Notes: a model not told the origin generated them from the letters alone. DNA of 64,000 bases from an uncultured Gammaproteobacteria bacterium (GCA_964355175.1 CAYHBZ010000001.1:439400-503399); one strand, 5' to 3'. Shown: positions 10,312 to 64,000, counted from the stretch's first letter. Program-made: numbers and translations.

Positions 10312-10445
10312 TGCTATACTCCCAACCAGCCAGTTGATTGCTGATTTGCGGGCATACTAACATATATTTTAAAAAATGCAATGATTATACATTGGACAAT
10401 AAAAATCATAATTGATAGAATATGGCTATATAAATTCTAAAAAAT

Positions 10446-10775
10446 ATGGCTAAACAATATTTTGAATTAAAAAAAGATCAATATCGAAAAAATCGTGGAG
10501 GTTATTCACGCTTTCTAAATATTTTTTGTGACAGTTGTAGCGCGCATTTGGCTCTATATCAAAAAGATGGTCCAGGTGAACTAAAAAGAATGTACCTCGA
10601 CAGAATTTTGGCGCCAAAAATTAAAAAAAATAAAACTATGGACTTCAAATGCTCCGCTTGTCAAAAAGTTGTCGGAACTTTCTATAATTATAAAAAAGAA
10701 GATCGACCGGCAATCCGTTTGTACCAAGGATCGGTAATAAAAAAAGTCGGAATTGGAATTTATCCTTTAAAATAA
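10446..10775 (+). CDS. Zn-ribbon protein (CxxC...CxxC), AT-rich paralog
   Basis: 109 aa. RGGYSRFLNIFCDSCSAHLALYQKDGPGELKRMYLDRI...CSACQ. About 50% identical to the GC-rich ORF at 13157-13522. A TTGGAC-18-TAGAAT promoter lies upstream. Confidence 0.55.
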   Translation: MAKQYFELKKDQYRKNRGGYSRFLNIFCDSCSAHLALYQKDGPGELKRMYLDRILAPKIKKNKTMDFKCSACQKVVGTFYNYKKEDRPAIRLYQGSVIKKVGIGIYPLK

Positions 10776-10787
10776 ATAGCGTAAAAA

Positions 10788-10822
10788 AACAATGCCTACT
10801 GAATTGGCATTGTTTTTTATTT
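10788..10822. terminator. Bidirectional terminator
   Basis: AACAATGCC-tactgaatt-GGCATTGTT with an A-run on one side and a T-run on the other. It ends both the plus Zn-ribbon gene and the minus GC-rich operon. Confidence 0.6.
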
Positions 10823-10922
10823 TAAAGACACAATACAAATATTATGTTCTTAATACGGGGTCTGCAGATGCGGCTACAGATTATCCCCTCCCTTTTCCTT
10901 TTGTGAAATGACCGCATTCAAA

Positions 10923-11486
10923 TTAGAACGACTGGATGTAGTTGGTGAAAATCGCTTGCGCGATTCGACTGATCTGACCCTCTTGCGAGACGATCTCATA
11001 GTCGTAATCACCGACATACCCCAAAGCCCAGAAACGCTCCAGCTCCTTTTGCGCGCTAGCGAAACGCGCACCGTCGGCATCCCGACCGTCTTTTCCCAAA
11101 CGCTGACGAAGCACGTCGAGCGAAGGCGGAGAAACGTAGATCGAGAACAGTTGACCAGGGAATGCCTGCTTCATGATCGACAGTCGATCGATCGGCCAGT
11201 CCAGCACCGGGAATTTCTCGGCGGACAGAGCCGCTTCAATCGGCAACCTCGGCGTCCCGTAAAGGATTCCGCCGAAGAGTTCGTTGACCACGAGCAGTTC
11301 GCCACGTTGCGACATTGCATCCATCTGGCTACGGCTCACCGAAACCTTATTCCTCTCTCCTTCCCGAAGCGGACGAGTCATGTAGGGACAGATGTAGACG
11401 AAGCGGTCGTCGAGTTTCGACAACTCGTCGATGACAGCACTCTTGCCCACGCCCGACGGACCCAGCAACAGCATGAACCTGCTCAT
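10923..11486 (-). CDS. Guanylate kinase-like NMP kinase, GC-rich
   Basis: P-loop LLLGPSGVGKS, Gmk-like TRPLREGE, and PPSLDVLRQRL / DYDYEIV segments. The start ATG overlaps the upstream stop (TGATG). AGGAGG lies 6 nt upstream. Confidence 0.6.
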   Translation of the reverse strand: MSRFMLLLGPSGVGKSAVIDELSKLDDRFVYICPYMTRPLREGERNKVSVSRSQMDAMSQRGELLVVNELFGGILYGTPRLPIEAALSAEKFPVLDWPIDRLSIMKQAFPGQLFSIYVSPPSLDVLRQRLGKDGRDADGARFASAQKELERFWALGYVGDYDYEIVSQEGQISRIAQAIFTNYIQSF

Positions 11487-12322
11487 CACTTCCTCCTTTC
11501 CAGGTTGAGAGCTTCTTTCGTCGTGACCGTAGCCATTTGAACGGCTGTTTGCCACGACTCAGAAGCGCCTGGATAGAGCAGGCCGCGAGAAGAGTTCACG
11601 AAGACGCCGAGACCTTCCGAGTTGAGCAGTTTGCCCAGATCCTGGTAGCTTCCACCTTGAGCACCGACACCGGCGAGCAGGATCGGCATGTTGTTCGGGA
11701 TGAGCGGGCGGATATTGTTCATATCCAACCCTGCCGTCGAGGACAACACGGGGATCATGTTACCGTTGCGATTCCAACGATTCACCACCAGGTCCAGCAT
11801 GTACTGCCAGAGCATGCGACCGTCATGGAGACGGACATCCTGAACAACACCGCCGGAGATGTTGCTCGTCTTGACGAGTACAACGACAGACTTGTCTTTG
11901 AGCTCCATGAGCGGTTCGATGACATCGTCCCCCATGTAGGGGTTCACGACGACACCGTCCGCCTGGATCTCTCCAAACAGGTTGTCGATGTAGGCCGCCA
12001 TAGTGTTCTCGATATCGCCGATCTTGCAATCGACAATCACGGGAACTCCCGGCAAAGTGCGATGGACGTAGTGGACGATCTCCTTGAGTACATCATGTCC
12101 ACCGGACATGAGATCGAAGAACGCCTTCTGCGCCTTGAACGCACAGACATGTGGACCAGTAGCATCCACGGCTCCCTGCAGAAACGCCAGAACCTTTTCT
12201 TCCTTGCTCCCGGGCTGTTCCAGCACTGCGCGCGGCAGTTTGGAAAAATCCGGATCAAGGCCGGCGCACAATAGAGTGCCCTGCTCGCGCATACGCGCGA
12301 AGAGTTGCTGATTCGCAATCAT
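11486..12322 (-). CDS. Orotidine-5'-phosphate decarboxylase-like (type 2 ODCase family), GC-rich second copy
   Basis: AGLDPD and VIVDCKIGDIENT preserve the DxKxxD catalytic motif. Paralogous to native pyrF at 41352-42170. AGGAGG SD. Confidence 0.65.
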   Translation of the reverse strand: MIANQQLFARMREQGTLLCAGLDPDFSKLPRAVLEQPGSKEEKVLAFLQGAVDATGPHVCAFKAQKAFFDLMSGGHDVLKEIVHYVHRTLPGVPVIVDCKIGDIENTMAAYIDNLFGEIQADGVVVNPYMGDDVIEPLMELKDKSVVVLVKTSNISGGVVQDVRLHDGRMLWQYMLDLVVNRWNRNGNMIPVLSSTAGLDMNNIRPLIPNNMPILLAGVGAQGGSYQDLGKLLNSEGLGVFVNSSRGLLYPGASESWQTAVQMATVTTKEALNLERRK

Positions 12323-13132
12323 TTACCCCTCCTGGATGTGAAGGCCTTGATGGTTGAGGTGTTGGCCCTTGGCGGCCAAATGGCGAGCGGTATGCTCGGT
12401 GGCCGGCACGATCACCGGCACGAGCTGGTCGCTAACCTTGTAGCCGTTTTCGCCAAAGACTGTAGCCTTGTAGGGGTTGTTGGTCGCCAGATCAATAGCA
12501 CACGAAGACGGCACCTCGAAGAATTTGAGGATGCAGACGACGCCGGAGTAGGTCCGGACATCGATGACGCCACCAGGTGCCAAGAGGCTGGCCGACTCGA
12601 CCGTGTTCACCTTGAGCTGTTCTTGAAGCCAGAGGGTAGCGAGCTTGAAGGTCAAGCCCATCCCCCGGCCATCTTGACGCGGGATGTTCACGATCATACC
12701 TTCCCCGACCTCGGCGAGCGTCTGCATAGCCAGCTTGAGTTGCTGACAGCATTCGCACGTCCGATCGCCGAAGACCTGGCCGGTTTCGCATCCCGAATCG
12801 GTACGCAAAACCAACCGTTCCTTCCGCTTGAAGACGGGGTTGAGGGTATTGAGGTCGATCTCGCCCCGAAGCAGCACGGAGTATTTCTCCCACTGGTCGT
12901 CGATGGCGAAATTGTACTGCCAAAACGACCCGAACTCGGTGTTGAGAACGCCGAGACCACGACGCTCCACGAAGTAGAAACGCCTGTCTCCAGCCTCCAC
13001 GACATCGATGCGCTTCTGCACCGGCTGCATAGAGCTCTGGACGAGAGCGATGAACTTCTCAACTTCCTGAGGGGACATGCCCGACTTGGCAATGATCTTG
13101 ATCATGTCGGGCGGGGGAACGCTGATAGCCAT
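12323..13132 (-). CDS. GTP cyclohydrolase II-like protein, GC-rich, with a non-canonical residue at the ring-opening Tyr position
   Basis: LRTDSGCETGQVFGDRTCECCQQL matches RVHSECLTGD..CDCGxQL (zinc Cys). NIPRQDGRGMGL matches YHRQEGRNIGL with Tyr replaced by Ile/Pro. LATNNPYK matches LLTNNPKK. AGGAGG SD. Confidence 0.65.
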   Translation of the reverse strand: MAISVPPPDMIKIIAKSGMSPQEVEKFIALVQSSMQPVQKRIDVVEAGDRRFYFVERRGLGVLNTEFGSFWQYNFAIDDQWEKYSVLLRGEIDLNTLNPVFKRKERLVLRTDSGCETGQVFGDRTCECCQQLKLAMQTLAEVGEGMIVNIPRQDGRGMGLTFKLATLWLQEQLKVNTVESASLLAPGGVIDVRTYSGVVCILKFFEVPSSCAIDLATNNPYKATVFGENGYKVSDQLVPVIVPATEHTARHLAAKGQHLNHQGLHIQEG

Positions 13133-13156
13133 GGCTATCCTCCTGATGCTTGATGG

Positions 13157-13522
13157 TTACAGATTGGTCGGCGGGTACATCCCGTCGCTCTTCTTCTTGC
13201 CGAAGGAGCCGGGCACCATACGGAAAGCCAGACGATTTTCCGGTTCGTACACCATGGGGGTGGCGATGAGCACATTGCACTGAGGGCAGAGCAGGTTGGG
13301 CAGCGCCTTCTTGTCGAGGGCCTTGCCCTTCAACTCGGCCAAAGTCGGCGGAGCGAAGATGCGATCGACATACATGCGCAAGAGCGCGCCAGGGCCGTCC
13401 TTTTGGTAAAGGGCGACATGGGCGTGGCAAGCGCAGCAGACGATGTTGAGGAAGCGAGAATCGCCTCCACGAGCCCGCGAGTAGCTGTCCCGCTTGGCCT
13501 GAAACTTGATTGGTTCGGTCAT
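13157..13522 (-). CDS. Zn-ribbon protein, GC-rich paralog, first gene of the operon
   Basis: 121 aa. RGGDSRFLNIVCCACHAHVALYQKDGPGALLRMYVDRI...CPQC. 24 nt upstream of the GCHII-like gene. Confidence 0.5.
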   Translation of the reverse strand: MTEPIKFQAKRDSYSRARGGDSRFLNIVCCACHAHVALYQKDGPGALLRMYVDRIFAPPTLAELKGKALDKKALPNLLCPQCNVLIATPMVYEPENRLAFRMVPGSFGKKKSDGMYPPTNL

Positions 13523-13648
13523 GGTTCCTCTGTTAGGTGAGAGTGGATGGTTGTTTGAGCTTTTGGTTAATCATTCATTATCAAAGAACCGGCCCTAGAC
13601 TACCACAATTTTTTGTTTTAAGCAAGGGTACGAGCTATTAATAAATTT

Positions 13649-15406
13649 CTAAAATTTTTGTTTATTCCATAATTCAAAAAATCTACCTTTCTCTTCCATC
13701 AAACTTTTAAAATAACCAGTCTCAATTAATTCTCCATTTTCGAGCAATAAAATTTTATCCATTTCTTGGATAGTGGTGAGGCGATGCGCAATCACTATTG
13801 CCGTCACTTCTTGAAAAAATTTATGCAGTGAATCTTTTATTTTTTCTTCGGATTCCAGATCCAAATGAGAAGTAGCTTCATCCAAAAATAAAATATCCGG
13901 CTTTTTAAAAATCGCTCGGGCAATACCGACTCTCTGCTTTTCTCCACCAGACAACTTTACACCCTTTTCCCCTATCAAAGTATCTAGACCTTCTGGCAAT
14001 TTCGACATGAAATCCGTAATATGAGCCACACCCACAGCCATTTGCAAACGCTCTTTGGACTCTATATTACCGCCGGCCATAATAATATTTTCTTTAAGAG
14101 AAAAATTTAAAACTTCTGTATCCTGCAAAACCACGGCCGTATTTTGGTAAAACGAACTCTTTTTAATTTTGCGGATGGAAATATTGTCGAGCAAAATATC
14201 GCCGGTAAAATTTTCGTACTCCTTGAGCAATAATTTAAACAAGGTGGATTTGCCGGCTCCAGATAATCCCACTATTCCAACTCTTTGCCCGCGTTTGATC
14301 TCAAAGGAAATATTCTTTAACACCGCGCGATCACCGTAAGAAAAAGAAACATTTTTAAATTGAATAGTCTGCCAATTGATTGGAAAATTTATTTTGTTGG
14401 CATCGTTGTCGATCAAAACTTTTTCGTTTAAAACATCTTTTAGACGGCTGACATGATATCTGGCTACTACCAATTCCTGAGAAACGTGGGAGAGCTCCTC
14501 TGCCGAAGTGCGCAGGTTGATAAAATAAAGATTAAACAGCAACAAAAATCCCAAATCATAACGCCCCGCCGCAATACCAAAAGCTATTAAAACCATGGCG
14601 CCGACGCGAAAAAAATGTGACCAATTGCTTTGGATAAAAATTTTGACGGCAAAAATATTAATACGTCTGGCTGTGCTTTTATAAACCTTATCAGCGTAGT
14701 TTCCCAACTTAGGAAAAAGCTGACCAAACATACCCATTACTTTGATACTGCGAATATTGTTGAGAATTTCAAAAGACAGACCATGCAAATCTTCTTCTTG
14801 GCGACTTACTTCCTTAGCTGCGGCCACCACCCGTCTACTTATCGGCATTACCGCCGTGAGATAGGTGACTAAAAATACAAGCACAATCAAAGCCACGCGC
14901 CAATCGATAAAATACAAAATAATTATCATGCCGACAAAGTTGACCCCAATTTCAATCAAATTGTTTATCCAAATTCGCAAAGAGGTTTCTATGCCAAGCC
15001 CGCCACTCTCGATGCATTTGAGGCGATTGCCGGTATTTTCTTTTTCATGCCAAGCAATATCTAGCAGACTGATATGACGAAACGCGTTTACCTGAGTTTC
15101 CAAATTTACTTTTTTGCCAACCTTACTACAAAGAAATTTGCCGGCTTGACGAACATTGTTGGAATAGATATAGGCCAGAGTCCAGATAATAAGTATATAC
15201 CAAAAAGGCTTCAAAGAATCGCCGGGATTATAGTGATTGAAAAAAGAAATAACTTTGGCCAAAGCCAAAGAGGTGTATAGGTAAATGCCGTCGGCGCTCA
15301 AACGCAACAAAGTGGCTAACCAAAATTTACCCTTTTGATTACCCAGAGAGCTATAAACATCGGAAGCAAGAGAGAAATAGGAGTAGTCGGTTTTTGAATT
15401 CTTCAT
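13649..15406 (-). CDS. ABC exporter, fused permease + ATPase (MsbA/MdlB-like)
   Basis: Six predicted TM helices followed by Walker A GLSGAGKST, signature LSGGEKQR and Walker B ILFLDE. Start chosen at MKNSKTD. The ORF track extends to 15466, but the repeat/terminator abuts it. Confidence 0.75.
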   Translation of the reverse strand: MKNSKTDYSYFSLASDVYSSLGNQKGKFWLATLLRLSADGIYLYTSLALAKVISFFNHYNPGDSLKPFWYILIIWTLAYIYSNNVRQAGKFLCSKVGKKVNLETQVNAFRHISLLDIAWHEKENTGNRLKCIESGGLGIETSLRIWINNLIEIGVNFVGMIIILYFIDWRVALIVLVFLVTYLTAVMPISRRVVAAAKEVSRQEEDLHGLSFEILNNIRSIKVMGMFGQLFPKLGNYADKVYKSTARRINIFAVKIFIQSNWSHFFRVGAMVLIAFGIAAGRYDLGFLLLFNLYFINLRTSAEELSHVSQELVVARYHVSRLKDVLNEKVLIDNDANKINFPINWQTIQFKNVSFSYGDRAVLKNISFEIKRGQRVGIVGLSGAGKSTLFKLLLKEYENFTGDILLDNISIRKIKKSSFYQNTAVVLQDTEVLNFSLKENIIMAGGNIESKERLQMAVGVAHITDFMSKLPEGLDTLIGEKGVKLSGGEKQRVGIARAIFKKPDILFLDEATSHLDLESEEKIKDSLHKFFQEVTAIVIAHRLTTIQEMDKILLLENGELIETGYFKSLMEEKGRFFELWNKQKF

Positions 15407-25770: not shown

Positions 25771-25799
25771 ACCCCTCAATTTTTGAGGGGTGTTTTTTC
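25771..25799 (+). terminator. rplA terminator
   Basis: CCCCTCAA-ttt-TTGAGGGG followed by TGTTTTTT. Confidence 0.6.
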
Positions 25800-25801
25800 G
25801 T

Positions 25802-26833
25802 ATGCTAATAATCGCCACTATTGTACCGAAGACCGAAGAGGCTATTATAAAAAAAATTATTCTCGCCGGAGCTGACGCTCTTAGGTTTAACTTTTTTTAC
25901 GATACAGTTGAAAAAAATATAGAACTAATACAAAGAGCAGACGGCATAATAGACGAACTCAATTCTAAAACCAGAATTTTTGTAGAACTACCATTAAATA
26001 AAATTGCTTTGGGAGATTTTGATCTAAAAATATTTGCTGTAAGAGAGCATGACGAGTTGATTTTTCAATCCGCCCCTTTTTCTCCAGATTGTCACGAATT
26101 TATTCCAGTGGATATTCCGTATTTAGGAGAACAGGTGAGAATTAATCAAACTATCAGTTTGGCCAATGGTAAAATTTCCATGCAGGTAATAGAGATAATT
26201 AATCGTAATACCATTAAAATCAAAATCCTAAACAACGGGGCTATCAAAGCTAAACAAACTTTCAACAACGGGGTCACTCTGCCGGATGAAGTAATGATCG
26301 AAAAATATAAAAAAATCATAAAAAGCATAGAAAATTTACCGATACGCTTTTTGGCTATCCCATATATCAACGAAAATTTCATCAACACCATCAAAAAAAC
26401 CGATTTACTAAGCAAATTGGATCCAAAAACAAAGATCGTCATAAACATAGAGAGGGAAATAAAGAACGCTGAAATAGAAGCATTATGCCAGGATGAAAGC
26501 TTCAACATTATTAATATTGATCGGGGCGAGCTTGGCGTAAATATGGCATTTGAAAGATACGGTATCTATCAGAAAAAAATAATCAACATAGCCAAAAAAT
26601 TTAATAAAAAACTATTTTTTTGTTCACACATTCTGCCGAGTATTATTGATAATTATATACCCGCCCGATCGGATATTGCCGATCTTACATATATAGCCTA
26701 TGAGGATGTCGCGGCTGGCATAATATTTAGTAAAGAGACTGGAGCCAGCAACCGACCGGCTTATGCCATCAGCGCCGCTCGTAAAATTATAAACGAAGTA
26801 GAAAAAGCAAAAAAAATTAATAGTGATTTTTAA
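25802..26833 (+). CDS. Pyruvate kinase-like TIM-barrel protein with no PK C-terminal domain
   Basis: IDRGELGVNM matches PK VARGDLGVE. IFSKETGAS matches PK MLSGETAKG. The N-terminal IATIVPKT..AGADALRFNFFYDT matches PK IVCTIGPAS..AGMNVARLNFSHG. Start moved past the rplA terminator. Confidence 0.5.
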   Translation: MLIIATIVPKTEEAIIKKIILAGADALRFNFFYDTVEKNIELIQRADGIIDELNSKTRIFVELPLNKIALGDFDLKIFAVREHDELIFQSAPFSPDCHEFIPVDIPYLGEQVRINQTISLANGKISMQVIEIINRNTIKIKILNNGAIKAKQTFNNGVTLPDEVMIEKYKKIIKSIENLPIRFLAIPYINENFINTIKKTDLLSKLDPKTKIVINIEREIKNAEIEALCQDESFNIINIDRGELGVNMAFERYGIYQKKIINIAKKFNKKLFFCSHILPSIIDNYIPARSDIADLTYIAYEDVAAGIIFSKETGASNRPAYAISAARKIINEVEKAKKINSDF

Positions 26834-26845
26834 AAATAGGCACCT

Positions 26846-27934
26846 ATGCCCAAAAAATCCGTTAAAAAAATCACTTATCCATCCATTACCGAATGGATCA
26901 AAAGAATTTCTTTACCAAATTCTGAACTTTTTATTAATGAAGACAGAACAAAATACGAACGTCTAAAAATTTTACACAAGGTTATCAATTTACCTTACTT
27001 ACCACCTACTGAATTTACTTCAAAAGAAATCTTGGAACAAAGCAAATCTTTTAAAAAATTTTTTAATAAAAAAAAGAATAATTTGTGCACTCTTCGGTTG
27101 ACCCCATTAATACCCGAACTTTCAAAAATTAGAAAAAGAGGCGGATCTCTGGCAGATAATATAAAATGGTATCTAAAACAAAAAATAGATCATAGCAGCT
27201 ATAAATTGGAGGTTGTCCCTAGAAGTAACAACGTACTCTGGTCAGGAATTTTTGTTGCTGATCACCATGGAATACTCGGAGAAATGAATAAGAGTGGGAT
27301 CACCCAAATGGTAAAAGGCGACCACACTCAAACACCGACTATATTTTCCTATAATTTTAAAGACTGGAAATTTTCAAAAAATAACAAGCGCATCCAAAAA
27401 ATAATTAAAAAAGTAATAAATAAAATACAAATAAAAAATCCAATAAAAAGAGAGAAAATAAAAAATGATCTACAGACTGAATTTACCAAAAATAATTTCA
27501 TGCGCGGTTACTTTGAGTTTACTATCTGGCCCAAATTAGGCCTGCGCTTTGTGGATTACAATCGCTTTCATATTAATATTCAAAAAGAAAAAGACGCTTG
27601 GGAAAAAAATAAAGAAAAGAAAATGATTGGTGTTTGCGCTGGCGTAGGCAAAGCAATTGGCAAAGCAAAAATAATTTTAAACCCAAACAAAAATAACAAA
27701 TTCAAAAAAGGAGACATCTTGGTCTGTAAAAATATTAATATCGATTACCTTCCAATCATCGGGCTAGCTTCCGGAATAATCACCGAAAAAGGCGCCTTAC
27801 TGTCTCACGCCGCTGTGATCTGTCGCGAATTAAAAAAACCTTATATCGTTTTGGTAAAAAACGCTACCACTAAAATTAAAAACAACGAGAAAATTAAAAT
27901 GGATGCCAATACCGGATCGATTCTGAAGATATAA
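26846..27934 (+). CDS. Protein with C-terminal PEP-utilising-enzyme mobile (phosphohistidine) domain, paralog 1
   Basis: C-terminus GIITEKGALLSHAAVICRELKKPYIVLV matches the GGxTSHAAIIARELGxP catalytic-His motif of PEP synthase / PPDK / Enzyme I. The N-terminal about 270 aa are unassigned. Confidence 0.5.
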   Translation: MPKKSVKKITYPSITEWIKRISLPNSELFINEDRTKYERLKILHKVINLPYLPPTEFTSKEILEQSKSFKKFFNKKKNNLCTLRLTPLIPELSKIRKRGGSLADNIKWYLKQKIDHSSYKLEVVPRSNNVLWSGIFVADHHGILGEMNKSGITQMVKGDHTQTPTIFSYNFKDWKFSKNNKRIQKIIKKVINKIQIKNPIKREKIKNDLQTEFTKNNFMRGYFEFTIWPKLGLRFVDYNRFHINIQKEKDAWEKNKEKKMIGVCAGVGKAIGKAKIILNPNKNNKFKKGDILVCKNINIDYLPIIGLASGIITEKGALLSHAAVICRELKKPYIVLVKNATTKIKNNEKIKMDANTGSILKI

Positions 27935-27953
27935 AAATACCTAACCGCTTGCT

Positions 27954-27980
27954 TAACAGGCGGTTTTTTAATACAATTAG
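27954..27980 (+). terminator. Hairpin between the two PEP-utiliser paralogs
   Basis: AACCGC-ttgcttaacag-GCGGTT followed by TTTTT. Confidence 0.45.
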
Positions 27981-27999
27981 TATTATAATTTATAAATTT

Positions 28000-29082
28000 A
28001 TGGCTATTTCTGAAATCATCGATAAACAGATGCCCTCCCTTACTGAGTGGCTAGAGCAGGCCGGATTTAAACAGTCTCAAGAATTCCGCCAAGAAGATAA
28101 TTCAAAGCGTGATCGTTTGGAAATTCTATTTCAAACTACCGGCTTGGCCTATGATCGACCAGCCAAATTTAGCGCACTGGAATTAAAGAATAGAGAACAA
28201 AAATTTACAGAGTTTTTTGATCAAGCCGGTGATAAATTGTGCGCATTAAGATTAATACCACTGACAGCAGAATTACCAAAACTACGCGTTCGTGGAAAAA
28301 CTTTAAAAGAAAATTTACACTGGTTTGACGAACAAAATATTGATGTGGAGAAATATAAAGTAGAGGTGGTTCCACACAGCGGCCATGACCAATTTTCTGC
28401 CACTTTTTTAATCAACGACCACGGCGTAGTAGGAGAAATTGTGCAAGGATTACACTGGCAACTCACCCAAGGCCTGCACGAAAACGAACCTACTTATTTC
28501 AATTTTGACTTTAATAACTGGAATTTTTCTAAAGAAGACAACGAAGCCATAAAATGGTTAAAACAGGCCGTGTCTTCTTTACAAATCACCAAGGATAAAC
28601 AAAATTTAATCCAACAGCAATTATCCGCCGAATTTACCTCTCAAAATTATTTAAAGGGATACTTTGAATTTGTTGTCTGGCCGGATAATAAAATTTATTT
28701 TATAGATTATAATCGAATAATCTATAAATCTTTAAAGGACTTAAAAAGTCATAATTTATCGCCACTCTCTTCTCTATCCGGGATATGCGCTAGCCCAGGA
28801 AAAGTTTCCGGTCTAGCAAAAATAATCTTGGATCCAAAAAATTCCAGCCTAAACGACGGGGATATTTTAATTTGTTCTATGACTATGATTGAATATGTGC
28901 CTCTCATGAAAAAATCCGGTGGGATCATCACAGCCCAAGGGAATATTTTATCCCATGCCGCGATTGTAGCGCGAGAATTAGGAAAGCCTTGTTTGGTAGG
29001 AGTTAAGGACATTTTAACAAAAATAAAAGATGGACAAAATATCACTTTGGATACCGACCAGGGACTGATAATTTTGAACTAA
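28000..29082 (+). CDS. Protein with C-terminal PEP-utilising-enzyme mobile domain, paralog 2
   Basis: GIITAQGNILSHAAIVARELGKPCLVGV. The N-terminal domain is homologous to paralog 1 (LRLIPL...KYKVEVVPHSG). Start moved to MAISEI after the hairpin. Confidence 0.5.
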   Translation: MAISEIIDKQMPSLTEWLEQAGFKQSQEFRQEDNSKRDRLEILFQTTGLAYDRPAKFSALELKNREQKFTEFFDQAGDKLCALRLIPLTAELPKLRVRGKTLKENLHWFDEQNIDVEKYKVEVVPHSGHDQFSATFLINDHGVVGEIVQGLHWQLTQGLHENEPTYFNFDFNNWNFSKEDNEAIKWLKQAVSSLQITKDKQNLIQQQLSAEFTSQNYLKGYFEFVVWPDNKIYFIDYNRIIYKSLKDLKSHNLSPLSSLSGICASPGKVSGLAKIILDPKNSSLNDGDILICSMTMIEYVPLMKKSGGIITAQGNILSHAAIVARELGKPCLVGVKDILTKIKDGQNITLDTDQGLIILN

Positions 29083-56393: not shown

Positions 56394-56861
56394 TTAAAAT
56401 TTTGAAGAAATATAATACATCGTGATGCCGGCTGCCACACTGACATTGAGGCTTTTCTTTTTACCTTTCATATTCAGTTCAATCTCAGTATCGCAATATT
56501 TAAGCAAGCTTTTGGAAACTCCATCCACTTCATTTCCCACTACCAGGGCCAAAGGAAATTCCGGTTTCCATTGATATATATTAACACTTTTTGGCGTCTG
56601 CTCCAAGGCGACAATTTTATAGCCATTTTCCTTTAGTTTTTTAAGCAGGCGTCCGGTCTGTTTGGCATATTCCCAGGGTACCCATTTTTCCGCTCCCAAA
56701 GACACTTTATCCAGGCGTGGATGCGGCGGACAAGGCGTGTAACCAGTAAGATAAATTTTATCTACCCCAGCCCCATCAGCGGTACGAAACATCGCGCCGA
56801 CATTGTGGGCGCTACGAATATTGGGCAATATTAAAACAAATTTTTCTTTATTTTCCAACAT
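56394..56861 (-). CDS. trmL: SpoU/TrmL-family tRNA 2'-O-methyltransferase
   Basis: SPOUT motifs (ILPNIRSAHNVGAMFRTADGAG). Confidence 0.75.
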   Translation of the reverse strand: MLENKEKFVLILPNIRSAHNVGAMFRTADGAGVDKIYLTGYTPCPPHPRLDKVSLGAEKWVPWEYAKQTGRLLKKLKENGYKIVALEQTPKSVNIYQWKPEFPLALVVGNEVDGVSKSLLKYCDTEIELNMKGKKKSLNVSVAAGITMYYISSKF

Positions 56862-57573
56862 AAGTTATTTCATCTTCACTAAGACGGCGCAAACCAGCGT
56901 CATTTATTGTTTCTTCATAAATATGAGCTACTAATCCTGGCACGCGACCGGCAATGAATACACCTTTCATAATTTTTGGATCAAAACCCATATCAGCCAA
57001 AATAGCTCCCATTGCGCCATCAATATTTAATGGTAATGGTTTACTAGAAATTTTATTTAATTCTTTTTCTACCACTTCAGCCACTTTACAGCACTCTTTA
57101 TAAAATCCTAATTTTTTAGCCATTTTTAAAAGTTCGGTACTGCGCTCATCTTTGACCAAAACCGCATGACCAAAACCAGCCAAACGCACTTTTTTATCTT
57201 TTAATTCTTTTATTGTCTGTGCCAAATTTTTATTATCTTTATTTTCCACAAAAAATTTTGCTGCTGATTCAATAGCACTACCGTGACGCTCTCCCATTGC
57301 CAATATACCGGCCGCTAGCGAGGTGTGCAGACTATTTTTGGCGGAAGATACGATTCGAGCCGTCATTGCCGAGGCTGTGCCCGTGCCGTGGTCTATAGCC
57401 GATACCAACAAAGCATCCAACATTTTTATTTCTGCCGGTTTTGGCATTCTGCCCTGCCAAATTAAAAATATAGTTTCGGTAAAAGTATTGGCTTTAATTA
57501 AACCAGCTAATTTTTTACCTCGAATAATTTCTTGTCCATCATTTATATTTGTAATTGCGGTTTCCCATTTCAT
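56848..57573 (-). CDS. Citryl-CoA lyase-like protein (citrate synthase-fold small domain)
   Basis: GFGHAVLVKDERS matches citrate synthase GFGHRVYK. MGERHGSA matches the CS HGGANE loop. 241 aa. Overlaps trmL by 14 nt. Confidence 0.5.
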   Translation of the reverse strand: MKWETAITNINDGQEIIRGKKLAGLIKANTFTETIFLIWQGRMPKPAEIKMLDALLVSAIDHGTGTASAMTARIVSSAKNSLHTSLAAGILAMGERHGSAIESAAKFFVENKDNKNLAQTIKELKDKKVRLAGFGHAVLVKDERSTELLKMAKKLGFYKECCKVAEVVEKELNKISSKPLPLNIDGAMGAILADMGFDPKIMKGVFIAGRVPGLVAHIYEETINDAGLRRLSEDEITYVGK

Positions 57574-57721
57574 ATTTTTTATATTAAGTATTAAAGCCGA
57601 TTAGATATTAATTTTCGCCGCGAGAACTGTTTGAAGTAGCGAGAAACAATCTAACCATTTGCAGGAAGATCGATTCGCTACAAGTTTTCGAGCAAGAAAA
57701 TTCATATCTATGAGGCGTCCG

Positions 57722-58618
57722 CTATGCAAACGGCTGAATTTTAGAAACTAAATCTTCATAAGTATCCGCAATTAGCACACCCACAGATTTCAAAGCCGCT
57801 TCTTTTTCCGCCGCACTCTGTCCTCTACCAACAATTGCACCAGCGTGGCCAATATTCATACCCTCGGGAAATAGATTGGCAAATTTCCCACCAATATATA
57901 CAGCGAGCGGCTTAGTAAATTCTTTTTTATTTATCAAATCCACTATTTCAAATTCATATCCTCCACCATGTTCACCAAAAATTACTACGGCTTTGGTCTG
58001 TTCATCTTTTTCAAATAATTTTAATAGATCGGTATAGGTAGTACCCATAAGTAGGTCACCTCCCACATGTACCGCACTACTCTGACCAAGTCCGGCGCGA
58101 CGAATTTGCCAAGACAGCTCATTGGTCATACCACCCGAACGAGAAATTACACCAATACTGCCGGGCTGAAACACTTGGTCAGCCAAAGCTTTTGGACCAC
58201 CCACCACACCCACACGCGCTTGTCCTGGGCTAATATACCCCAGAGAGCTCGGACCAATAATGCGAATATTTTTTTCTTTGGCAGCAGCCAAACAATAGGC
58301 AGTGTCCTGAATTGGAATACGCTCTACAATGGTATTAATTATCGCTATATCATTTTGAATTGCTTCGAGAATTGCTTCTTTGGCCGCAAACGGCGGGACA
58401 TAGATTGTGGTGGTAGAAATATCCGGAAATGCGACCTTAGCTTCGGCCACCGAATTAAAAACCGGTACACCTTCCACCACTTCTCCACCTTTGCCTGGGC
58501 GCACACCGGCTACCACTTGGGTACCATATTCGCGCATCGCCGTGGCCGCTTTCTGACCTTCTTTGCCAGTGATGCCCTGCACCAACACTTTGGTATTTTT
58601 ATCTATTAGGATACTCAT
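57722..58618 (-). CDS. Succinyl-CoA synthetase alpha-like subunit (CoA-binding, phospho-His)
   Basis: VLVQGITGKEG and NIGHAGAIV phosphohistidine loop. Confidence 0.8.
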   Translation of the reverse strand: MSILIDKNTKVLVQGITGKEGQKAATAMREYGTQVVAGVRPGKGGEVVEGVPVFNSVAEAKVAFPDISTTTIYVPPFAAKEAILEAIQNDIAIINTIVERIPIQDTAYCLAAAKEKNIRIIGPSSLGYISPGQARVGVVGGPKALADQVFQPGSIGVISRSGGMTNELSWQIRRAGLGQSSAVHVGGDLLMGTTYTDLLKLFEKDEQTKAVVIFGEHGGGYEFEIVDLINKKEFTKPLAVYIGGKFANLFPEGMNIGHAGAIVGRGQSAAEKEAALKSVGVLIADTYEDLVSKIQPFA

Positions 58619-58619
58619 A

Positions 58620-59762
58620 TTATTTTAAAATCATTTCTGCCAAAACTTTGGCAGTTTCACCCATGGCGATTTCTTTACCAAAAATTTTCATATTCAAATT
58701 ATTGCGCTCTGCACATTCTTGCATCAATCTTTTCCCTTCAGCTTCATTTGGTCCGGCGCGGCGGATTACTATTGGATAAGACGGCTTTACTTCATCGAGC
58801 GCGTCAATAATTCCCTGAAAAGTAGCGGCGATATCCGTAAAATTGGCTACCCCACCGGCAATCCACAAACCTTTTAAACCTGGCTTGGATAAAACAATTT
58901 TAGCAAGCTGGGCCACTTTTTCGCGCGGTGGATTACCAGAGTATTCGGTATAGTTTGCTGGTTTCAAACCAGCTTTAATTAACTCATCCATATTGGCGAT
59001 ACTAGCCCCACCACCCGAAAACAATACCGCCACATCACCTTCCATCTCAATATATTTTCCAGCCGTACCACGATAATAGTTTTCACCTTCATCAATTTTT
59101 TTTACCTGCAATTCTCTATCGGTAGGCAAACGACCAAGCATGGTGCGTGGTTCAAATTCCCAATCTTTGTGACGATAAAAAGCATCTTCATCGATCGCGA
59201 TCTTAGAATCAGCCGCCACCCAACGACCGTCGTCAGTTTTTACCAACGGATTTATTTCCACTACACGCGCGTCGGTCTGCAAAAAACACCGCCACAGCTC
59301 ATCGGCATAAGGCACCGACAAACCGGTTTTTTCTTGGCGGATATCCAAATAATGTTTATTGATTTCGTTGTGCTCTACTTCTTCGATATCCATACCACCA
59401 CTTTCACTATAGATCAAAAGCGGTTGTTTTCTGTTTGTATCATAAGTGATAGACAAATAATGTTCTTCGGCAATGTTCAATTTTTCTTCCATAAAAACCG
59501 CGGCCACATATTGGCCGTTTAGATTGGAAGAAAAAATCTTCTCTGCTGCCGCTTTTGCTTCGTCAGCTGTAGAAGCAAATAAAATACCATTATTTTTGCC
59601 GCGTTTACCGGATAACACTTGGGCTTTGAGCACGACATCTTTTAGGCCAAATTGTTCATAGGCACTCACAACACCATCTTCGCGACGCAGCAAAACCGAC
59701 TTCGGTGTTTCGACACCAAATTTTGTAAAAATATTTTTTCCTTCAAATTCGTAGAGATTCAT
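58620..59762 (-). CDS. Succinyl-CoA synthetase beta-like ATP-grasp subunit
   Basis: MNLYEFEGKNIFTKFGV N-terminus. ATP-grasp plus ligase-CoA domains. Confidence 0.8.
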   Translation of the reverse strand: MNLYEFEGKNIFTKFGVETPKSVLLRREDGVVSAYEQFGLKDVVLKAQVLSGKRGKNNGILFASTADEAKAAAEKIFSSNLNGQYVAAVFMEEKLNIAEEHYLSITYDTNRKQPLLIYSESGGMDIEEVEHNEINKHYLDIRQEKTGLSVPYADELWRCFLQTDARVVEINPLVKTDDGRWVAADSKIAIDEDAFYRHKDWEFEPRTMLGRLPTDRELQVKKIDEGENYYRGTAGKYIEMEGDVAVLFSGGGASIANMDELIKAGLKPANYTEYSGNPPREKVAQLAKIVLSKPGLKGLWIAGGVANFTDIAATFQGIIDALDEVKPSYPIVIRRAGPNEAEGKRLMQECAERNNLNMKIFGKEIAMGETAKVLAEMILK

Positions 59763-59780: not shown

Positions 59781-60689
59781 TTATTTACTACTCCATCTAG
59801 CAAAAATACCACATGGCAACAAACGACCACTTTTACTTTCTTGCAAGGTTAATTCCCCTTTTTCTGTCTGACCGCCGTATTTTTTTAATAACATCTGCAA
59901 ATTATTTTCATAGGCGATTGCGGAGTATCCGGCAGCATAACCATTGATAAGAAAAAACAATGGAGTGTCAGATAAAATCTCACTGCACATATCCACCAGT
60001 CCCACAAAATCTTTTTCTACTTTCCACATTTCACCGTTTGGCCCATGTCCAAAAGCCGGTGGATCCATCAGAATACCATCGTATTTTTTACCGCGCTTTA
60101 CTTCGCGTTTTACAAATTCGACAGCGTCATCCAAAATCCAACGAATTGGTTTTTCTTTTAATCCAGACAATTCCGCATTGTCGCGTGCCCAACCAATTGC
60201 CACTTTGGATCCATCTACATGACACACCTGCGCTCCCGCTTGCGCGCAAGCCAGACTAGCACCACCAGTATATCCAAACAAATTCAAAACATGAATTTCT
60301 GGTTGTTTCGGCAAACGCTTTTTAATTACTTCGCGCATCCAATTCCAATTGCCTTCTTGCTCTGGAAAAAGCCCAGTGTGCTTGAAAGCCGTTGGACGAA
60401 TATTAAATTTCAATCCGCCAAAATTTATGGTCCATTTTTCTGGAGTACCAGGACGGATATCCCAATCCGCAGCGCGGCCATCACGAATAAACACAGCGTG
60501 GGCATTTCCCCAATCTTTATTAAGTGACAAATTTTTCTTCCAGAGCGCTTGAGGATCTGGGCGACGAAAAACCACTTTTCCATAGCGTTCCAATTTTTCC
60601 CCATCACCGCTATCGAGCAATTCGTAGTCGGCGCTAGGCAAAGTAGATAATATTGATAAAGTTTGCATGGACATAGAGTAGATTGACAT
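59781..60689 (-). CDS. Class I SAM-dependent RNA methyltransferase, RlmI-like
   Basis: LNLFGYTGGASL SAM motif. DPPAFGHG catalytic motif. Confidence 0.65.
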   Translation of the reverse strand: MSIYSMSMQTLSILSTLPSADYELLDSGDGEKLERYGKVVFRRPDPQALWKKNLSLNKDWGNAHAVFIRDGRAADWDIRPGTPEKWTINFGGLKFNIRPTAFKHTGLFPEQEGNWNWMREVIKKRLPKQPEIHVLNLFGYTGGASLACAQAGAQVCHVDGSKVAIGWARDNAELSGLKEKPIRWILDDAVEFVKREVKRGKKYDGILMDPPAFGHGPNGEMWKVEKDFVGLVDMCSEILSDTPLFFLINGYAAGYSAIAYENNLQMLLKKYGGQTEKGELTLQESKSGRLLPCGIFARWSSK

Positions 60690-60712
60690 TTTTAAATGAT
60701 TTATGATAGTAT
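60683..60712 (+). promoter_or_regulatory. Promoter of the candidate ncRNA
   Basis: TTGACA-18-TAGTAT. Confidence 0.4.
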
Positions 60713-60718
60713 AATATT

Positions 60719-60892
60719 AGTTGGAAAATTTATCTAGAGCGGTGCGAGGGATTCGGCCCGATGACCACCCAGCAACCCCCTAAACCGGGGTGCTAATTCC
60801 GACCCTATTTAGGGAAAGATTTGTCCGTTTTAAACGGAAACAGTTTGCTTGTAGTCTGTTATCTTTCTTTATTTAGATAACGGATTTTTTTG
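60719..60892 (+). ncRNA. Candidate structured ncRNA or riboswitch-like leader of about 170 nt, family not recognised
   Basis: Bounded by its own promoter and an intrinsic terminator (CTGTTATCT-ttctttattt-AGATAACGG plus T7). Internal hairpins CCCTA/TAGGG and TCCGTTT/AAACGGA. G/C-rich paired segments GGCCCGATGACCACCC...CCGGGGTGC. No ORF. Confidence 0.35.
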
Positions 60893-60990
60893 TTCTTTTC
60901 ATTGTGTTGAGTTATAGGACACACCTTTGCTTTCTTAAAAAATCAGAGGAGTGTTCTGTAGCTTCAACCGCTTATCCCGTGAGGTGCCCC

Positions 60991-61266
60991 ATGTCCCAGC
61001 CCATCTCCTTCTCCGACAGCCAAGTCACCGAGCTGGCCCGGCTGATCGTTCGCTTCATCAGCCAGAGCGAGCTCTCCACCTTCCAACGCGTGGTCAGCCG
61101 CGTCGAGTACGAGGCTCCCTGGTTTGTCTGGGTCGCTCTGGCCAATGACGGTACCGAACTGGGCCGCTCAGACGAGTTCCGCTTCGTGGCTGCCAACGTC
61201 CGGCCGGTCGTGACCGCCCAGACCGCCCGCGACATCATGAAAGGAATCGCTGATCACACGTCGTGA
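60991..61266 (+). CDS. GC-rich hypothetical protein of 91 aa
   Basis: ATG preceded by GAGGTG. About 62% GC in an AT-rich context. No family recognised. Confidence 0.4.
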   Translation: MSQPISFSDSQVTELARLIVRFISQSELSTFQRVVSRVEYEAPWFVWVALANDGTELGRSDEFRFVAANVRPVVTAQTARDIMKGIADHTS

Positions 61267-61289
61267 TCGCAAGTGGCCTCCGGGAACCG

Positions 61290-61328
61290 GCCGGCGTCGC
61301 ATTCATTGCGCGCCGGCCGGACACTCCC
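61290..61328 (+). repeat. GC-rich 14-bp inverted repeat
   Basis: CCGGCCGGCGTCGCA-ttcat-TGCGCGCCGGCCGG directly after the 91-aa ORF. Confidence 0.5.
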
Positions 61329-61338
61329 ACCTATCGCC

Positions 61339-61366
61339 CCCTCGCATAATTGAGGGTTTTTTATTT
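61339..61366 (+). terminator. Terminator
   Basis: CCCTC-gcataatt-GAGGG followed by TTTTTT. Confidence 0.55.
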
Positions 61367-61742: not shown

Positions 61743-62696
61743 TTACTTTAAAACTTCTTTTAATTTCTTTCCTAATTTTATTGAGCACAATCCTCCACCA
61801 TCACGCTCATAATCAAAACTTATTACCTTATAATCTTTCAATTCTTTGGTATTGTCTAGTAACAAACCCCATTTTTTTTCTTTATATCTTTTATTTTCTG
61901 CCGCAGTTAACTTATGATTATTATACAACACTGTATCAATCTTGCGTGGCAAATACCGCTGAAGCTCCCTCACCGCGCCGGCCACATCTTCCGGACCAGT
62001 TTCACTATCGGTGCGATAAGCATTACCCGTAACAAAAATTATTTTAGCTTTGTTATTTTTTATAGCAACTTGTATGCCTACTGGCAATAAAGTTGCCACC
62101 ACGCTGGTATAGAGACTGCCGGGACTAAGAATAATATAATCCGCTGATTTGATAACTTTCAAGGATTCACTATAGGCCGAAACTTCCGGCTCTAAAAATA
62201 CTTTTTTTATTCTCAAACTACGATCGTACTCAGGACTATCAATTTTTGCTTCACTAAAAACTTTTTGTCCATTGCTCAGCTCTGCTACTAAATCACTACT
62301 ATGTAGGGTAGCTGGAAATACCTTACCTTGCACTTCCACACTCTGTCCAAGGGCTCGCACCGCCGACATCAATTCTCCGCTATATCGCGTAGCCAGGGTA
62401 AAAAATATATTACCTAGATTATGTTTATCTAGCTTATCCTTACTTTCAAAACGATTGGAATAAAAAATTTTCTTCAGCAATGGATAATCATATTTGGATA
62501 AGGCTAAAACCGCGCGCATAATATCTCCGGGTGGTAAGACTCCCAATTCTTTTCGTAGTCGGCCGGAAGATCCACCGGAATCGCTCATCGCCACAATACC
62601 GACAATATCAAATTTATCGACATTTTGTTTCAATGCCACCAGTGATACCGCACTACCATTTCCCCCTCCCAAAACTACAACTTTCTTTTTATTCAT
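61743..62696 (-). CDS. YvcK/CofD-family protein (gluconeogenesis factor-like, UPF0052)
   Basis: VVLGGGNGSAVSLVAL...AMSDSGGSSGRLR...GDIMRAVLAL pattern. Confidence 0.7.
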   Translation of the reverse strand: MNKKKVVVLGGGNGSAVSLVALKQNVDKFDIVGIVAMSDSGGSSGRLRKELGVLPPGDIMRAVLALSKYDYPLLKKIFYSNRFESKDKLDKHNLGNIFFTLATRYSGELMSAVRALGQSVEVQGKVFPATLHSSDLVAELSNGQKVFSEAKIDSPEYDRSLRIKKVFLEPEVSAYSESLKVIKSADYIILSPGSLYTSVVATLLPVGIQVAIKNNKAKIIFVTGNAYRTDSETGPEDVAGAVRELQRYLPRKIDTVLYNNHKLTAAENKRYKEKKWGLLLDNTKELKDYKVISFDYERDGGGLCSIKLGKKLKEVLK

Positions 62697-62697
62697 A

Positions 62698-63348
62698 TTA
62701 AAATAAAAATTTATTTATTCTCTCATCCCCGAAAGAATCAATTTGTAGATCAGCCAATGAATAATCGCCGCGTGTCCACTGTTGGTTCACCAAAGCAATA
62801 CAGCTCATACCGGCTTTCTTGGCCGACACCACACCATTTTGAGCATCTTCAAATACCAAACAATCTTCCGGACTAACACCGAGCGTTTTGGCGGCATGCA
62901 AATAAATAAATGGATCGGGCTTACCAATATGACCCACATCGTCGCTGGATATTAATTGTTTAAAATAGTTTCTCCAATTAAATTTATCCACCACTTCATT
63001 TATTAATTCATGGCGTGCACCCGACGCAATTGCCTGTGGATAGATCACACTAATTTTGGATAATAAATTTTCTACCAGCGGCAGTGGTTTGATACTGTCC
63101 TTATAAATTTTATCCGTAAAACTTCGTCTTTCTATTATCAACTCTTCCACTGTTCCCGGCAAATTAAATTTTTCTTTTAACCAAGAAACATTTTGAATTT
63201 CACTCCTGCCCGTAAATAATATGGTCATTTCTGGAGTGGTCGCCATATTATATTTTTTTAAAAATCCTTCTTCAGCAGCGCCCCAATATTGCTCACTGTC
63301 AATGAGCACTCCATCCATATCAAAAATTACCGCTTTGAATCTTTTCAT
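62698..63348 (-). CDS. HAD-superfamily hydrolase (subfamily IA, beta-phosphoglucomutase-like)
   Basis: Motif I FDMDGVLIDSE. C-terminal VFEDAQNGV. Confidence 0.75.
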   Translation of the reverse strand: MKRFKAVIFDMDGVLIDSEQYWGAAEEGFLKKYNMATTPEMTILFTGRSEIQNVSWLKEKFNLPGTVEELIIERRSFTDKIYKDSIKPLPLVENLLSKISVIYPQAIASGARHELINEVVDKFNWRNYFKQLISSDDVGHIGKPDPFIYLHAAKTLGVSPEDCLVFEDAQNGVVSAKKAGMSCIALVNQQWTRGDYSLADLQIDSFGDERINKFLF

Positions 63349-63350
63349 AA

Positions 63351-64000
63351 TCATTCTACTGTTACACTCTTGGCCAAATTTCTTGGTCTATCCACATCTT
63401 TGCCGAGCAACACTGCGGTGTGGTACGAAAAAAGTTGCAGAGCCAAAGTATTCACGAGCGGCTCGAGTAGCTCCATAGTTTGTGGTACATATATCACATC
63501 GTCAGCTATTTCCTTGGCTTCCACATCACCCTCAGTGGCAATCAAAATTACCGGTGCTTTGCGAGCCTTGGCTTCTTGGATATTGCTAATCATTTTTTCG
63601 TATAGTTGATTTTTGGTAGCAATCGCGATGATTGGAAAATTGTCCGCCAAAAGCGCGATTGGACCATGCTTCATCTCACCGCCCGGATAACCTTCGGCAT
63701 GAATATAGGAAATCTCTTTGAGCTTGAGAGCGCCTTCCAAAGCCACCGGATAATTTATACCGCGTCCCAAAAAGATACAATCCGTATAATCTTTATATTT
63801 TTGTGCGATCGCTTTTATCTTATTACTTTGGGCCAAAACCAATTTCATCTTTTCCGGAATCTCCAAAAGTGCGTGTAATAATCTTTCACCAGTGGCCACA
63901 CTCACACGATTCAGGCGACCAAACTGCAAAGCATATAAAATTAAAACCGCCACCATATTCGTATAAGCTTTGGTAGAGGCGACCGCCAACTCTGGTCCAG
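63351..64000 (-). CDS. glmS: Glutamine--fructose-6-phosphate aminotransferase, C-terminal SIS part; N-terminus lies beyond the window
   Basis: Ends with the canonical PRNLAKSVTVE. SIS-domain GYPGGEMKHGP. Confidence 0.85.
   Translation of the reverse strand, partial: GPELAVASTKAYTNMVAVLILYALQFGRLNRVSVATGERLLHALLEIPEKMKLVLAQSNKIKAIAQKYKDYTDCIFLGRGINYPVALEGALKLKEISYIHAEGYPGGEMKHGPIALLADNFPIIAIATKNQLYEKMISNIQEAKARKAPVILIATEGDVEAKEIADDVIYVPQTMELLEPLVNTLALQLFSYHTAVLLGKDVDRPRNLAKSVTVE

Follow-up and report, generated by a model that had tools for sequence, protein, structure and literature searches.

A citryl-CoA synthetase and citryl-CoA lyase gene trio in a Magasanikbacteria genome as a candidate stand-alone source of acetyl-CoA

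In Hydrogenobacter thermophilus, ATP-dependent cleavage of citrate is divided between two enzymes, citryl-CoA synthetase (CCS; CcsA/CcsB, PDB 6hxq) and citryl-CoA lyase (CCL; Ccl, PDB 6hxp), which together comprise three separate polypeptides. The genes ccsA, ccsB and ccl, like aclAB of ATP-citrate lyase (ACL), serve as markers of CO2 fixation by the reductive tricarboxylic acid (TCA) cycle. Related sequences from the Candidate Phyla Radiation (CPR) and from archaea of the DPANN group have received other names: a 2022 preprint found CPR and DPANN sequences annotated as succinyl-CoA synthetase (SCS) or citrate synthase (CS) to be monophyletic with CCS and CCL and offered no function for them (10.1101/2022.10.25.513756), and a 2026 survey of DPANN took K01902 to be SCS in genomes that have no citrate synthase. 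We found no paper in the literature on the role of these genes in CPR. Here we analysed a 64,000-nucleotide stretch of DNA (the window; GCA_964355175.1 CAYHBZ010000001.1:439400-503399), filed under an uncultured Gammaproteobacteria bacterium and placed by its homologues, which include an identical protein on a contig of 953,736 bp, in Candidatus Magasanikbacteria, class ABY1 of the CPR. Three consecutive genes on its minus strand, called beta, alpha and CCL below and together the trio, have the same domain set as the Hydrogenobacter enzymes and are likewise three separate polypeptides.

Judged by family, residues and the beta and CCL trees, these genes are members of the CCS and CCL families, with citrate-binding, phospho-histidine and lyase residues intact, and are not SCS, MTK or fused ACL. 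We give a probability of roughly 0.6 to the reading that the trio carries out two-enzyme, ATP-dependent citrate cleavage of the Hydrogenobacter type and acts as a stand-alone source of acetyl-CoA for an adjacent acetyltransferase, UDP-GlcNAc and envelope glycans. The three co-directional open reading frames (ORFs) had first been proposed from the sequence alone, and the ORF listing of the window reproduced their lengths and coordinates exactly (Table 1). Beta and alpha are separated by 1 nt and alpha and CCL by 148 nt; alpha and CCL were separate ORFs here and unfused in all related loci too.

The beta subunit matched the Pfam families ATP-grasp_2 (6e-40) and Citrate_bind (PF16114, 1e-30), with no match to Ligase_CoA, its C-terminal half being the citrate-binding domain of ACL. 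Its scores stayed under the NCBIfam cut-offs of both SucC (238 vs 375) and malate-CoA ligase (NF010647, 160.8 vs 604), and among PDB entries Hydrogenobacter CCS-large ranked first (6hxq_B, 207 bits), followed by Thermus SCS-beta (163) and Chlorobium ACL-beta (153). Two loops that read FGGITR and RL.GTN in SCS read ANFT and RRAGP in the window protein, which is in this respect like Chlorobium ACL (ANFTD/RRGGPN), Hydrogenobacter CCS having ANNTR/RRNGPE. Human ACLY binds citrate through residues 280-281, 307-310, 343-348, 379, 626 and 664-665 (PMC11365397). We verified the human stretches against PDB entries and mapped them onto the window proteins, in which every mappable citrate-contact residue was retained, identical or conservative (Table 1); these residues were also conserved across the CPR loci.

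All trees were built by neighbour-joining on Kimura distances, which are rough methods. In the beta tree, built from 183 sequences with 100 bootstraps, the window protein stood with Hydrogenobacter CCS-large and Chlorobium ACL-beta in a clade of 140, which was separated from SCS-beta with a bootstrap of 91; the RR.GP clade received 73 and the CPR clade 99. Deep branching within the ANFT clade (CPR vs ACL vs DPANN) had bootstraps below 50, so we make no claim about which lineage is ancestral. Clades with altered loops (xNNT, IANQ) adjoined the CCS/ACL clade.

The alpha subunit matched CoA_binding (4e-20) and Ligase_CoA in Pfam and fell below the NCBIfam cut-off for SucD (286 vs 336). It has SRSGGMTNE where ACLY has SRSGGMSNE and SCS has SRSGTLTYE, and the SGG motif together with two insertions was common to alpha, CCS-small and human ACLY and absent from SCS-alpha.

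The third protein matched Citrate_synt in Pfam (1.6e-42) over profile positions 162-351 of 357 only, and so is without the N-terminal ~160 residues of citrate synthase; its length fits the short citrate-synthase fold (~240-270 aa) and is full length for a CCL. It passed the NCBIfam citryl-CoA lyase model NF004869 (256.3 bits vs a cut-off of 212), and its best PDB match was Hydrogenobacter CCL (6hxp_A, 187 bits, E 3.6e-54), with citrate synthases reaching at most 87 bits. Residues H97, H136, D185, R144 and R210 did not vary in an alignment of 83 CCL and CS sequences. We take them to be the equivalents of citrate synthase His274, His320, Asp375, Arg329 and Arg401 (pig-enzyme numbering). In the tree of these 83 sequences (200 bootstraps), citrate synthases were split from all CCL in 200/200, with support of 189 for the CPR clade and 155 for the Aquificota clade. 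The protein was conserved across more than 130 loci.

Thus, the proposal of the sequence-only reading, a CCS/CCL system of the two-enzyme Hydrogenobacter type, agrees with the residues, the family cut-offs and the beta and CCL trees. The motifs that it had named were all located (Table 1), beta lay outside bona fide SCS-beta, the signature residues of the citrate-binding loop were present in beta, and the 241-aa protein retained all lyase-essential residues; with beta apart from SCS and the catalytic residues of CCL intact, that interpretation stands. Its further suggestion, that malyl-CoA or succinyl-CoA would suit the third protein equally well, is now unlikely in view of the citrate-contact residues and the malate-CoA ligase score.

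Table 1. Coordinates and residues of the trio and of neighbouring genes. Positions are counted from the first letter of the window; L001 is the 10-kb extension just beyond the window end, from the same organism.
Feature	Position	Strand	Remarks
Beta: citryl-CoA synthetase large (beta-like) subunit, 380 aa	58620..59762	-	ATP-grasp and ACL-type citrate-binding domain
Alpha: citryl-CoA synthetase small (alpha-like) subunit, 298 aa	57722..58618	-	CoA-binding domain, phospho-histidine H258
CCL: citryl-CoA lyase, 241 aa	56848..57573	-	citrate-synthase fold without N-terminal part
Beta motif GGGAS	59001-59015	-	motif search
Beta motif YSG	58935-58943	-	motif search
Beta motif ANFT	58836-58847	-	motif search
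Beta motif RR	58758-58763	-	motif search
Alpha SRSGGM	58127-58144	-	ACLY-type motif
Alpha phospho-histidine H258 in GHAGA	57836-57850	-	phospho-His loop; aligns to ACLY H760
CCL motif ERHGSA	57274-57291		contains H97
CCL motif GFGHAVL	57157-57177		contains H136
CCL catalytic residues			H62, H97 (ERHGSA), H136 (GFGHAVL), R144, D185 (NIDG), R210
Beta G250-252			human ACLY G281-283
Beta S275, G276			human ACLY S308, G309
Beta N307, F308, T309			human ACLY N346, F347, T348
Beta R335			human ACLY R379
Alpha G162, G163			human ACLY G664, G665
Alpha H258			human ACLY H760
SpoU/TrmH-family RNA 2'-O-methyltransferase	56394..56861	-	start overlaps CCL stop by 14 nt; context
SAM-dependent RNA methyltransferase (RlmK/RlmI-like)	59781..60689	-	Pfam Methyltrans_SAM, NCBIfam; 18 nt upstream of beta; context
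Minimal GNAT acetyltransferase, 109 aa	61367..61696	-	Pfam Acetyltransf_1; proposed acetyl-CoA consumer
YvcK/GlmR-type UDP-N-acetylglucosamine-binding protein (CofD-like)	61743..62696	-	TIGR01826 223 vs 196; Pfam CofD
Beta-phosphoglucomutase-family HAD hydrolase	62698..63354	-	under family cut-off; candidate sugar-phosphate mutase or phosphatase
GlmS (glutamine--fructose-6-phosphate transaminase), C-terminal part	63351..63989	-	ORF listed from internal TTG (63989)
GlmS complete, 607 aa	L001:4589-6412		TIGR01135 790 vs 418
GlmU-like, 249 aa	L001:3827-4576		uridylyltransferase half only: positions 2-237 of ~450

The trio is already known as a set of genes: it is widespread, with one gene order shared by dozens of CPR and DPANN lineages, named in databases and noted in the preprint. 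NCBI calls many homologues 'citryl-CoA lyase', and JGI uses 'citryl-CoA synthetase large subunit' for those of beta. Among species-representative genomes we found 261 relatives of CCL, the best 80 of which were from CPR class ABY1 (Magasanik-, Uhr- and Kerfeldbacteria), followed at 42-47% identity by Aquificota, two DPANN archaea and one Nitrospirota genome. Of 57 CPR genome loci, about 50 kept the order beta, alpha, CCL, as did both DPANN loci. A metagenome scan with a five-sequence CCL alignment as query added 80 loci, and the trio was present in 53 loci of the combined set (L085-L172). The sequence-only reading had found such genes unexpected in a genome showing no TCA genes in the window; the absence held for the ORFs scanned, while a trio this common in ABY1 and DPANN is not unexpected in the sense of rare. 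What appears to be new is the genomic context, an acyltransferase upstream of beta and surrounding amino-sugar or glycan clusters.

Variable accessory genes were inserted between beta, alpha and CCL in about 20 CPR loci, the order of the trio being unchanged (these include L010, L013, L014, L020, L029, L030, L033, L037, L044, L045, L048, L053 and L054). The inserted genes encoded a recurrent multi-pass membrane protein of 130-148 aa (cluster c28), proteins resembling GIY-YIG, and others that are secreted or lie in the membrane. Many records labelled 'uncultured Gammaproteobacteria bacterium' (binchicken/SRP co-assemblies; among them L009-L012, L014, L017, L018, L022 and L024) were syntenic with Magasanikbacteria loci and 55-77% identical to them, and their organism names look like placeholders or errors.

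We investigated the neighbourhood of the trio in the window and its extension L001. Along the minus strand, the genes run in the order class I aldolase, phosphoribosyltransferase, TrmB, HAD, GlmU-like and GlmS, then beta-phosphoglucomutase-family HAD, YvcK, GNAT, an inserted plus-strand module, RNA methyltransferase, beta, alpha and CCL. The RNA methyltransferase between GNAT and beta was confined to the sub-lineage of the window and is probably co-transcribed with the trio. Scans for promoters and terminators near the operon performed no better than chance (16 found vs 11.8 expected and 9 vs 5.2, respectively), so we claim no transcript boundaries. In CPR more widely, a GNAT lay within 6 kb of beta in 26 of the 32 loci with enough upstream sequence, and directly upstream of it in 22, with a median gap of 5 nt. 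A GlmU homologue of 249-254 aa without the LbH acetyltransferase half, as in the window host, was also found in 14 CPR loci (cluster c12); beside the trio there was either a small GNAT (the lineage of the window) or, in other lineages, a 204-aa LbH protein with a weak match to the C-terminal part of GlmU. We could not assign the GNAT as a GlcN-6-P acetyltransferase, its family-profile PDB matches holding GNA1 and polyamine acetyltransferases alike. Some 45 other ORFs scanned in the window were ribosomal, tRNA-synthetase, pyrimidine/folate, sugar-phosphate and cell-envelope genes.

The plus-strand module (60683-61360) that interrupts this gene string has a sigma70-like promoter, the aptamer of a SAM-I riboswitch (RF00162, 60727-60825, 57 bits), a hairpin rich in T, an ORF of 91 aa (60991-61266) within an island of 370 nt whose GC content is 63-67% against ~40% for the genome, and a strong terminator (61339-61356). 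The 91-aa ORF had no Pfam match and, among 5.8 billion proteins, matched only itself. Since the flanking genes are 12 nt apart in the close relative L007, the module looks like a genome-specific insertion. Elsewhere in the window, a 347-aa protein consisting of a pyruvate-kinase barrel only is followed on the plus strand (25790-29082) by two paralogues of ~370 aa, the sole Pfam match of each being the C-terminal PEP-utilizers mobile domain, an unusual split around PEP/pyruvate. Positions 10001-14000, with a GC content of 0.49-0.52 against ~0.40 elsewhere, may be another foreign island; long mirror-image ORFs lie there on both strands (for example 10908-11540 on the plus and 10923-11555 on the minus strand, and 12305-13153 and 12323-13132 likewise), and an Rfam scan of this region found no rRNA or other RNA family.

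Synteny within ABY1 would be a simple argument for a glmS/yvcK/GNAT operon with the trio, and we dropped it as proof. In these dense CPR genomes unrelated genes downstream were equally syntenic and tightly spaced, so ABY1 synteny alone is weak evidence, and the argument rests instead on different acyltransferase families recurring in different lineages. Pooling 79 loci, the gene directly upstream of beta was a GNAT, LbH or MBOAT acyltransferase in 38; for 11 of 32 lineages, such a gene stood there in half of the loci or more. With one locus taken per lineage, acyltransferases made up 16 of the 119 genes within two positions of the trio and 10 of the 283 genes further away (odds ratio 4.2, p 5e-4). 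An independent Pfam scan of 150 random distant genes found five of the GNAT family, with Hexapep outside the 25 commonest families, giving a background of ~4-5%.

Representatives 38-50% identical to beta again had contiguous trios, in different neighbourhoods. In L090, the trio overlaps the start and stop codons of its neighbours in a cluster with a GFO_IDH_MocA oxidoreductase, an LbH acetyltransferase, a DegT aminotransferase, NeuB and glycosyltransferases, which we infer to be a pathway of the diacetamido-sugar type. Epimerase/dehydratases and glycosyltransferases adjoin the trio in L086 and L088, L086 also having a DegT aminotransferase and an LbH-like protein, and an MBOAT O-acyltransferase and a teichoic-acid transferase adjoin it in L085. 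These neighbourhoods are amino-sugar or glycan biosynthesis clusters.

The proposed mechanism would begin with phosphorylation of alpha His258 by ATP. The phosphate would pass to citrate, bound in beta by Arg335 and the ANFT loop, CoA would displace the phosphate to give citryl-CoA, and CCL would split citryl-CoA into acetyl-CoA and oxaloacetate by means of His97, His136 and Asp185. The citrate would be scavenged, and the system would stand outside any carbon-fixing cycle, like the cytosolic ATP-citrate lyase of eukaryotes. Acetyl-CoA would then go to the neighbouring acetyltransferase for the step of N-acetylation in making UDP-GlcNAc and glycans of the cell envelope, this enzyme replacing the GlmU acetyltransferase half that is missing in the genome. 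Oxaloacetate would arise as a by-product and might go into aspartate.

Several observations weigh against this reading. The best PDB match of the alpha subunit was archaeal SCS-alpha (249 bits), ahead of CCS-small (200 bits), and its neighbour-joining tree did not resolve SCS from CCS/ACL (SCS split 129/200), which is why we placed alpha by its indels. Substrate and direction are deduced from residues and gene context only. We found neither a citrate transporter nor a fate for oxaloacetate in the sequence available. An alternative source of acetyl-CoA, a three-subunit 2-oxoacid:ferredoxin oxidoreductase, was encoded near the trio in eight CPR loci, at or just upstream of glmS (L007, L008, L015, L019, L021, L024, L051 and L054), its alpha subunit being seen in only three of the eight. 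The 109-aa GNAT is without the usual N-terminal third of its family. The genes that share the synteny of the trio with equally small gaps include the TIGR00375 family, RluA, L19 and UvrA. Finally, a generous background of 8/150 lowers the acyltransferase enrichment to an odds ratio of 2.8 (p 0.018), and since the acyltransferase seeds came from neighbours of the trio, detection was biased and some of this bias remains.

The main rival explanation is that the trio runs in the opposite direction, with CCL condensing acetyl-CoA and oxaloacetate and CCS releasing citrate while making ATP. Such an energy-conserving citrate synthase would serve substrate-level phosphorylation or a branch from citrate through isocitrate to 2-oxoglutarate. 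There is a precedent in Desulfobacter postgatei, in which ACL is used oxidatively and ATP is gained. In one lineage (L119, L144, L148, L150 and L158), aconitase-family subunits directly follow CCL; large and small subunits were both present, in most loci with an HD-domain protein ahead and as two pairs, and L150 had a second beta-alpha pair. L144 then has a dehydrogenase whose best PDB matches were NAD-isocitrate and homoisocitrate dehydrogenases. The aconitase beside CCL thus supports citrate as the metabolite, and is compatible with either direction. The reverse reaction would also suit the 2-oxoacid:ferredoxin oxidoreductase found upstream in some CPR loci and the rarity of acetate kinase in Patescibacteria, where it occurs in 6% of metagenome-assembled genomes (PMC8672522). 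However, no aconitase or isocitrate dehydrogenase was found in the 64 kb scanned or the 10 kb beyond, the dominant conserved neighbours consume acetyl-CoA and are not producers of oxaloacetate or acetyl-CoA, and the required stoichiometric supply of oxaloacetate was not evident. We consider this direction unlikely.

We also considered a CCS/CCL-like pair acting on another hydroxy-acid (malate/malyl-CoA, citramalate, 2-methylcitrate or homocitrate) and yielding acetyl-CoA or another acyl-CoA with a different keto-acid. Identity to characterised enzymes is only 37-43%, and the neighbouring clades with altered loops may differ in specificity, which leaves some room for a change of substrate. Yet all mapped ACLY citrate contacts are kept, including the Phe, Thr and Arg of the ANFT and RR motifs, the 83 sequences show no variation at the His and Arg with which the citrate-synthase fold binds oxaloacetate/citrate, and the score against the malate-CoA ligase model is far below its cut-off (161 vs 604). 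Such a shift in substrate is improbable.

An ordinary succinyl-CoA synthetase (SucCD) for substrate-level phosphorylation, accompanied by a degenerate remnant of citrate synthase, is largely refuted already, and we attach very little weight to it. Such genes do carry this annotation in older records and in some recent surveys of DPANN: some sources call homologues 'succinyl-CoA synthetase beta subunit', the DPANN survey counts K01902 as SCS, and the best PDB match of alpha is an archaeal SCS-alpha. Both subunits nevertheless stay under the SucC and SucD cut-offs, beta has Citrate_bind with neither Ligase_CoA nor the SCS motifs and is set apart by the bootstrap-91 split, and the supposed remnant is of CCL length, has intact catalytic residues and recurs in the >130 loci. 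That the trio cleaves citrate as a step of a CO2-fixing reductive TCA cycle, like that of Aquificae, is the least probable account, since Patescibacteria genomes generally have no TCA cycle (81.8% of metagenome-assembled genomes) or an incomplete one (PMC8672522) and neither the 64-kb window nor its 10-kb extension yielded another gene of the cycle; the trio lies among glycan and amino-sugar clusters, even though the closest characterised relatives are the reductive-cycle enzymes of Hydrogenobacter and KEGG-style annotation puts ccsA, ccsB and ccl under carbon fixation.

Returning to citrate cleavage as the preferred reading, a wider form of it can be put forward tentatively, as something possible rather than expected. 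In ultra-small bacteria without central carbon metabolism, and probably in DPANN too, the trio might be a dedicated generator of acetyl-CoA, coupled physically and transcriptionally to sugar N-/O-acetyltransferases, with UDP-GlcNAc and other acetylated envelope sugars depending on citrate from the host or the environment; perhaps it also reflects the state of ATP-citrate lyase before fusion. The order beta, alpha, CCL is colinear with ACLY and the motifs are of ACL type, which makes the trio a candidate unfused ancestor of that enzyme. If true, this would be the prokaryotic counterpart of the cytosolic role of ACLY. It would also name a testable dependency of CPR, citrate as the source of acetyl groups for cell-wall sugars, that could guide cultivation, for example by citrate supplementation, and the gap in GlmU may be filled by the small GNAT or LbH acetyltransferase beside the trio. 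Since the trio is common in CPR and DPANN without the cycle, matches to the marker genes should be taken neither for autotrophy nor for 'succinyl-CoA synthetase'.

Among known systems, citrate lyase (CitDEF) is another that cleaves citrate, and it does so in fermenting bacteria that have no TCA cycle. It is a functional analogue only, belonging to an unrelated family, independent of ATP and yielding acetate rather than acetyl-CoA, and no CitDEF homologue was seen among the scanned window proteins. Citrate synthase and CCL have the catalytic residues in common and, of the Pfam model, its C-terminal 190 positions, whereas the N-terminal ~160 residues and the 200/200 split set the two apart. SucCD and the trio have the same fold family, the phospho-histidine mechanism and similar subunit sizes, and alpha is 44-47% identical to SCS-alpha; they differ in the carboxylate-binding motifs of beta, in the Citrate_bind domain of the trio, in the scores of both subunits, which lie under the equivalog cut-offs, and in the separate beta clade.

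The Hydrogenobacter enzymes are closer. They gave the best PDB matches of beta and CCL, have the two insertions in common with alpha, and conserve the catalytic His/His/Asp, with identities of ~37% for beta, 40% for alpha and 43% for CCL. The trio proteins are shorter than their Hydrogenobacter counterparts (380 vs 429, 298 vs 353 and 241 vs 268 aa), and their citrate loop reads ANFT, as in ACL, rather than ANNT. The window genes form one beta, alpha, CCL string, whereas 20 Aquificota loci had no CCS gene within 8 kb of CCL, and unlike Hydrogenobacter the window host shows no visible reductive TCA cycle. ACL, as the bacterial AclB/AclA (PDB 6hxj) or human ACLY, has the same overall chemistry as predicted for the trio. 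CCL matches Aquificae CCL (187 bits) far better than the citrate-synthase-homology module of ACL (~67 bits), and the alpha-like and lyase modules that ACL fuses are two ORFs with a 148-nt spacer in the trio. Both share the motifs (I/V)ANFT, RR(G/A)GPN and SRSGGM(S/T)NE, the gene order follows the domains of ACLY, and the proposed stand-alone supply of acetyl-CoA by the trio would parallel that of cytosolic ACLY.

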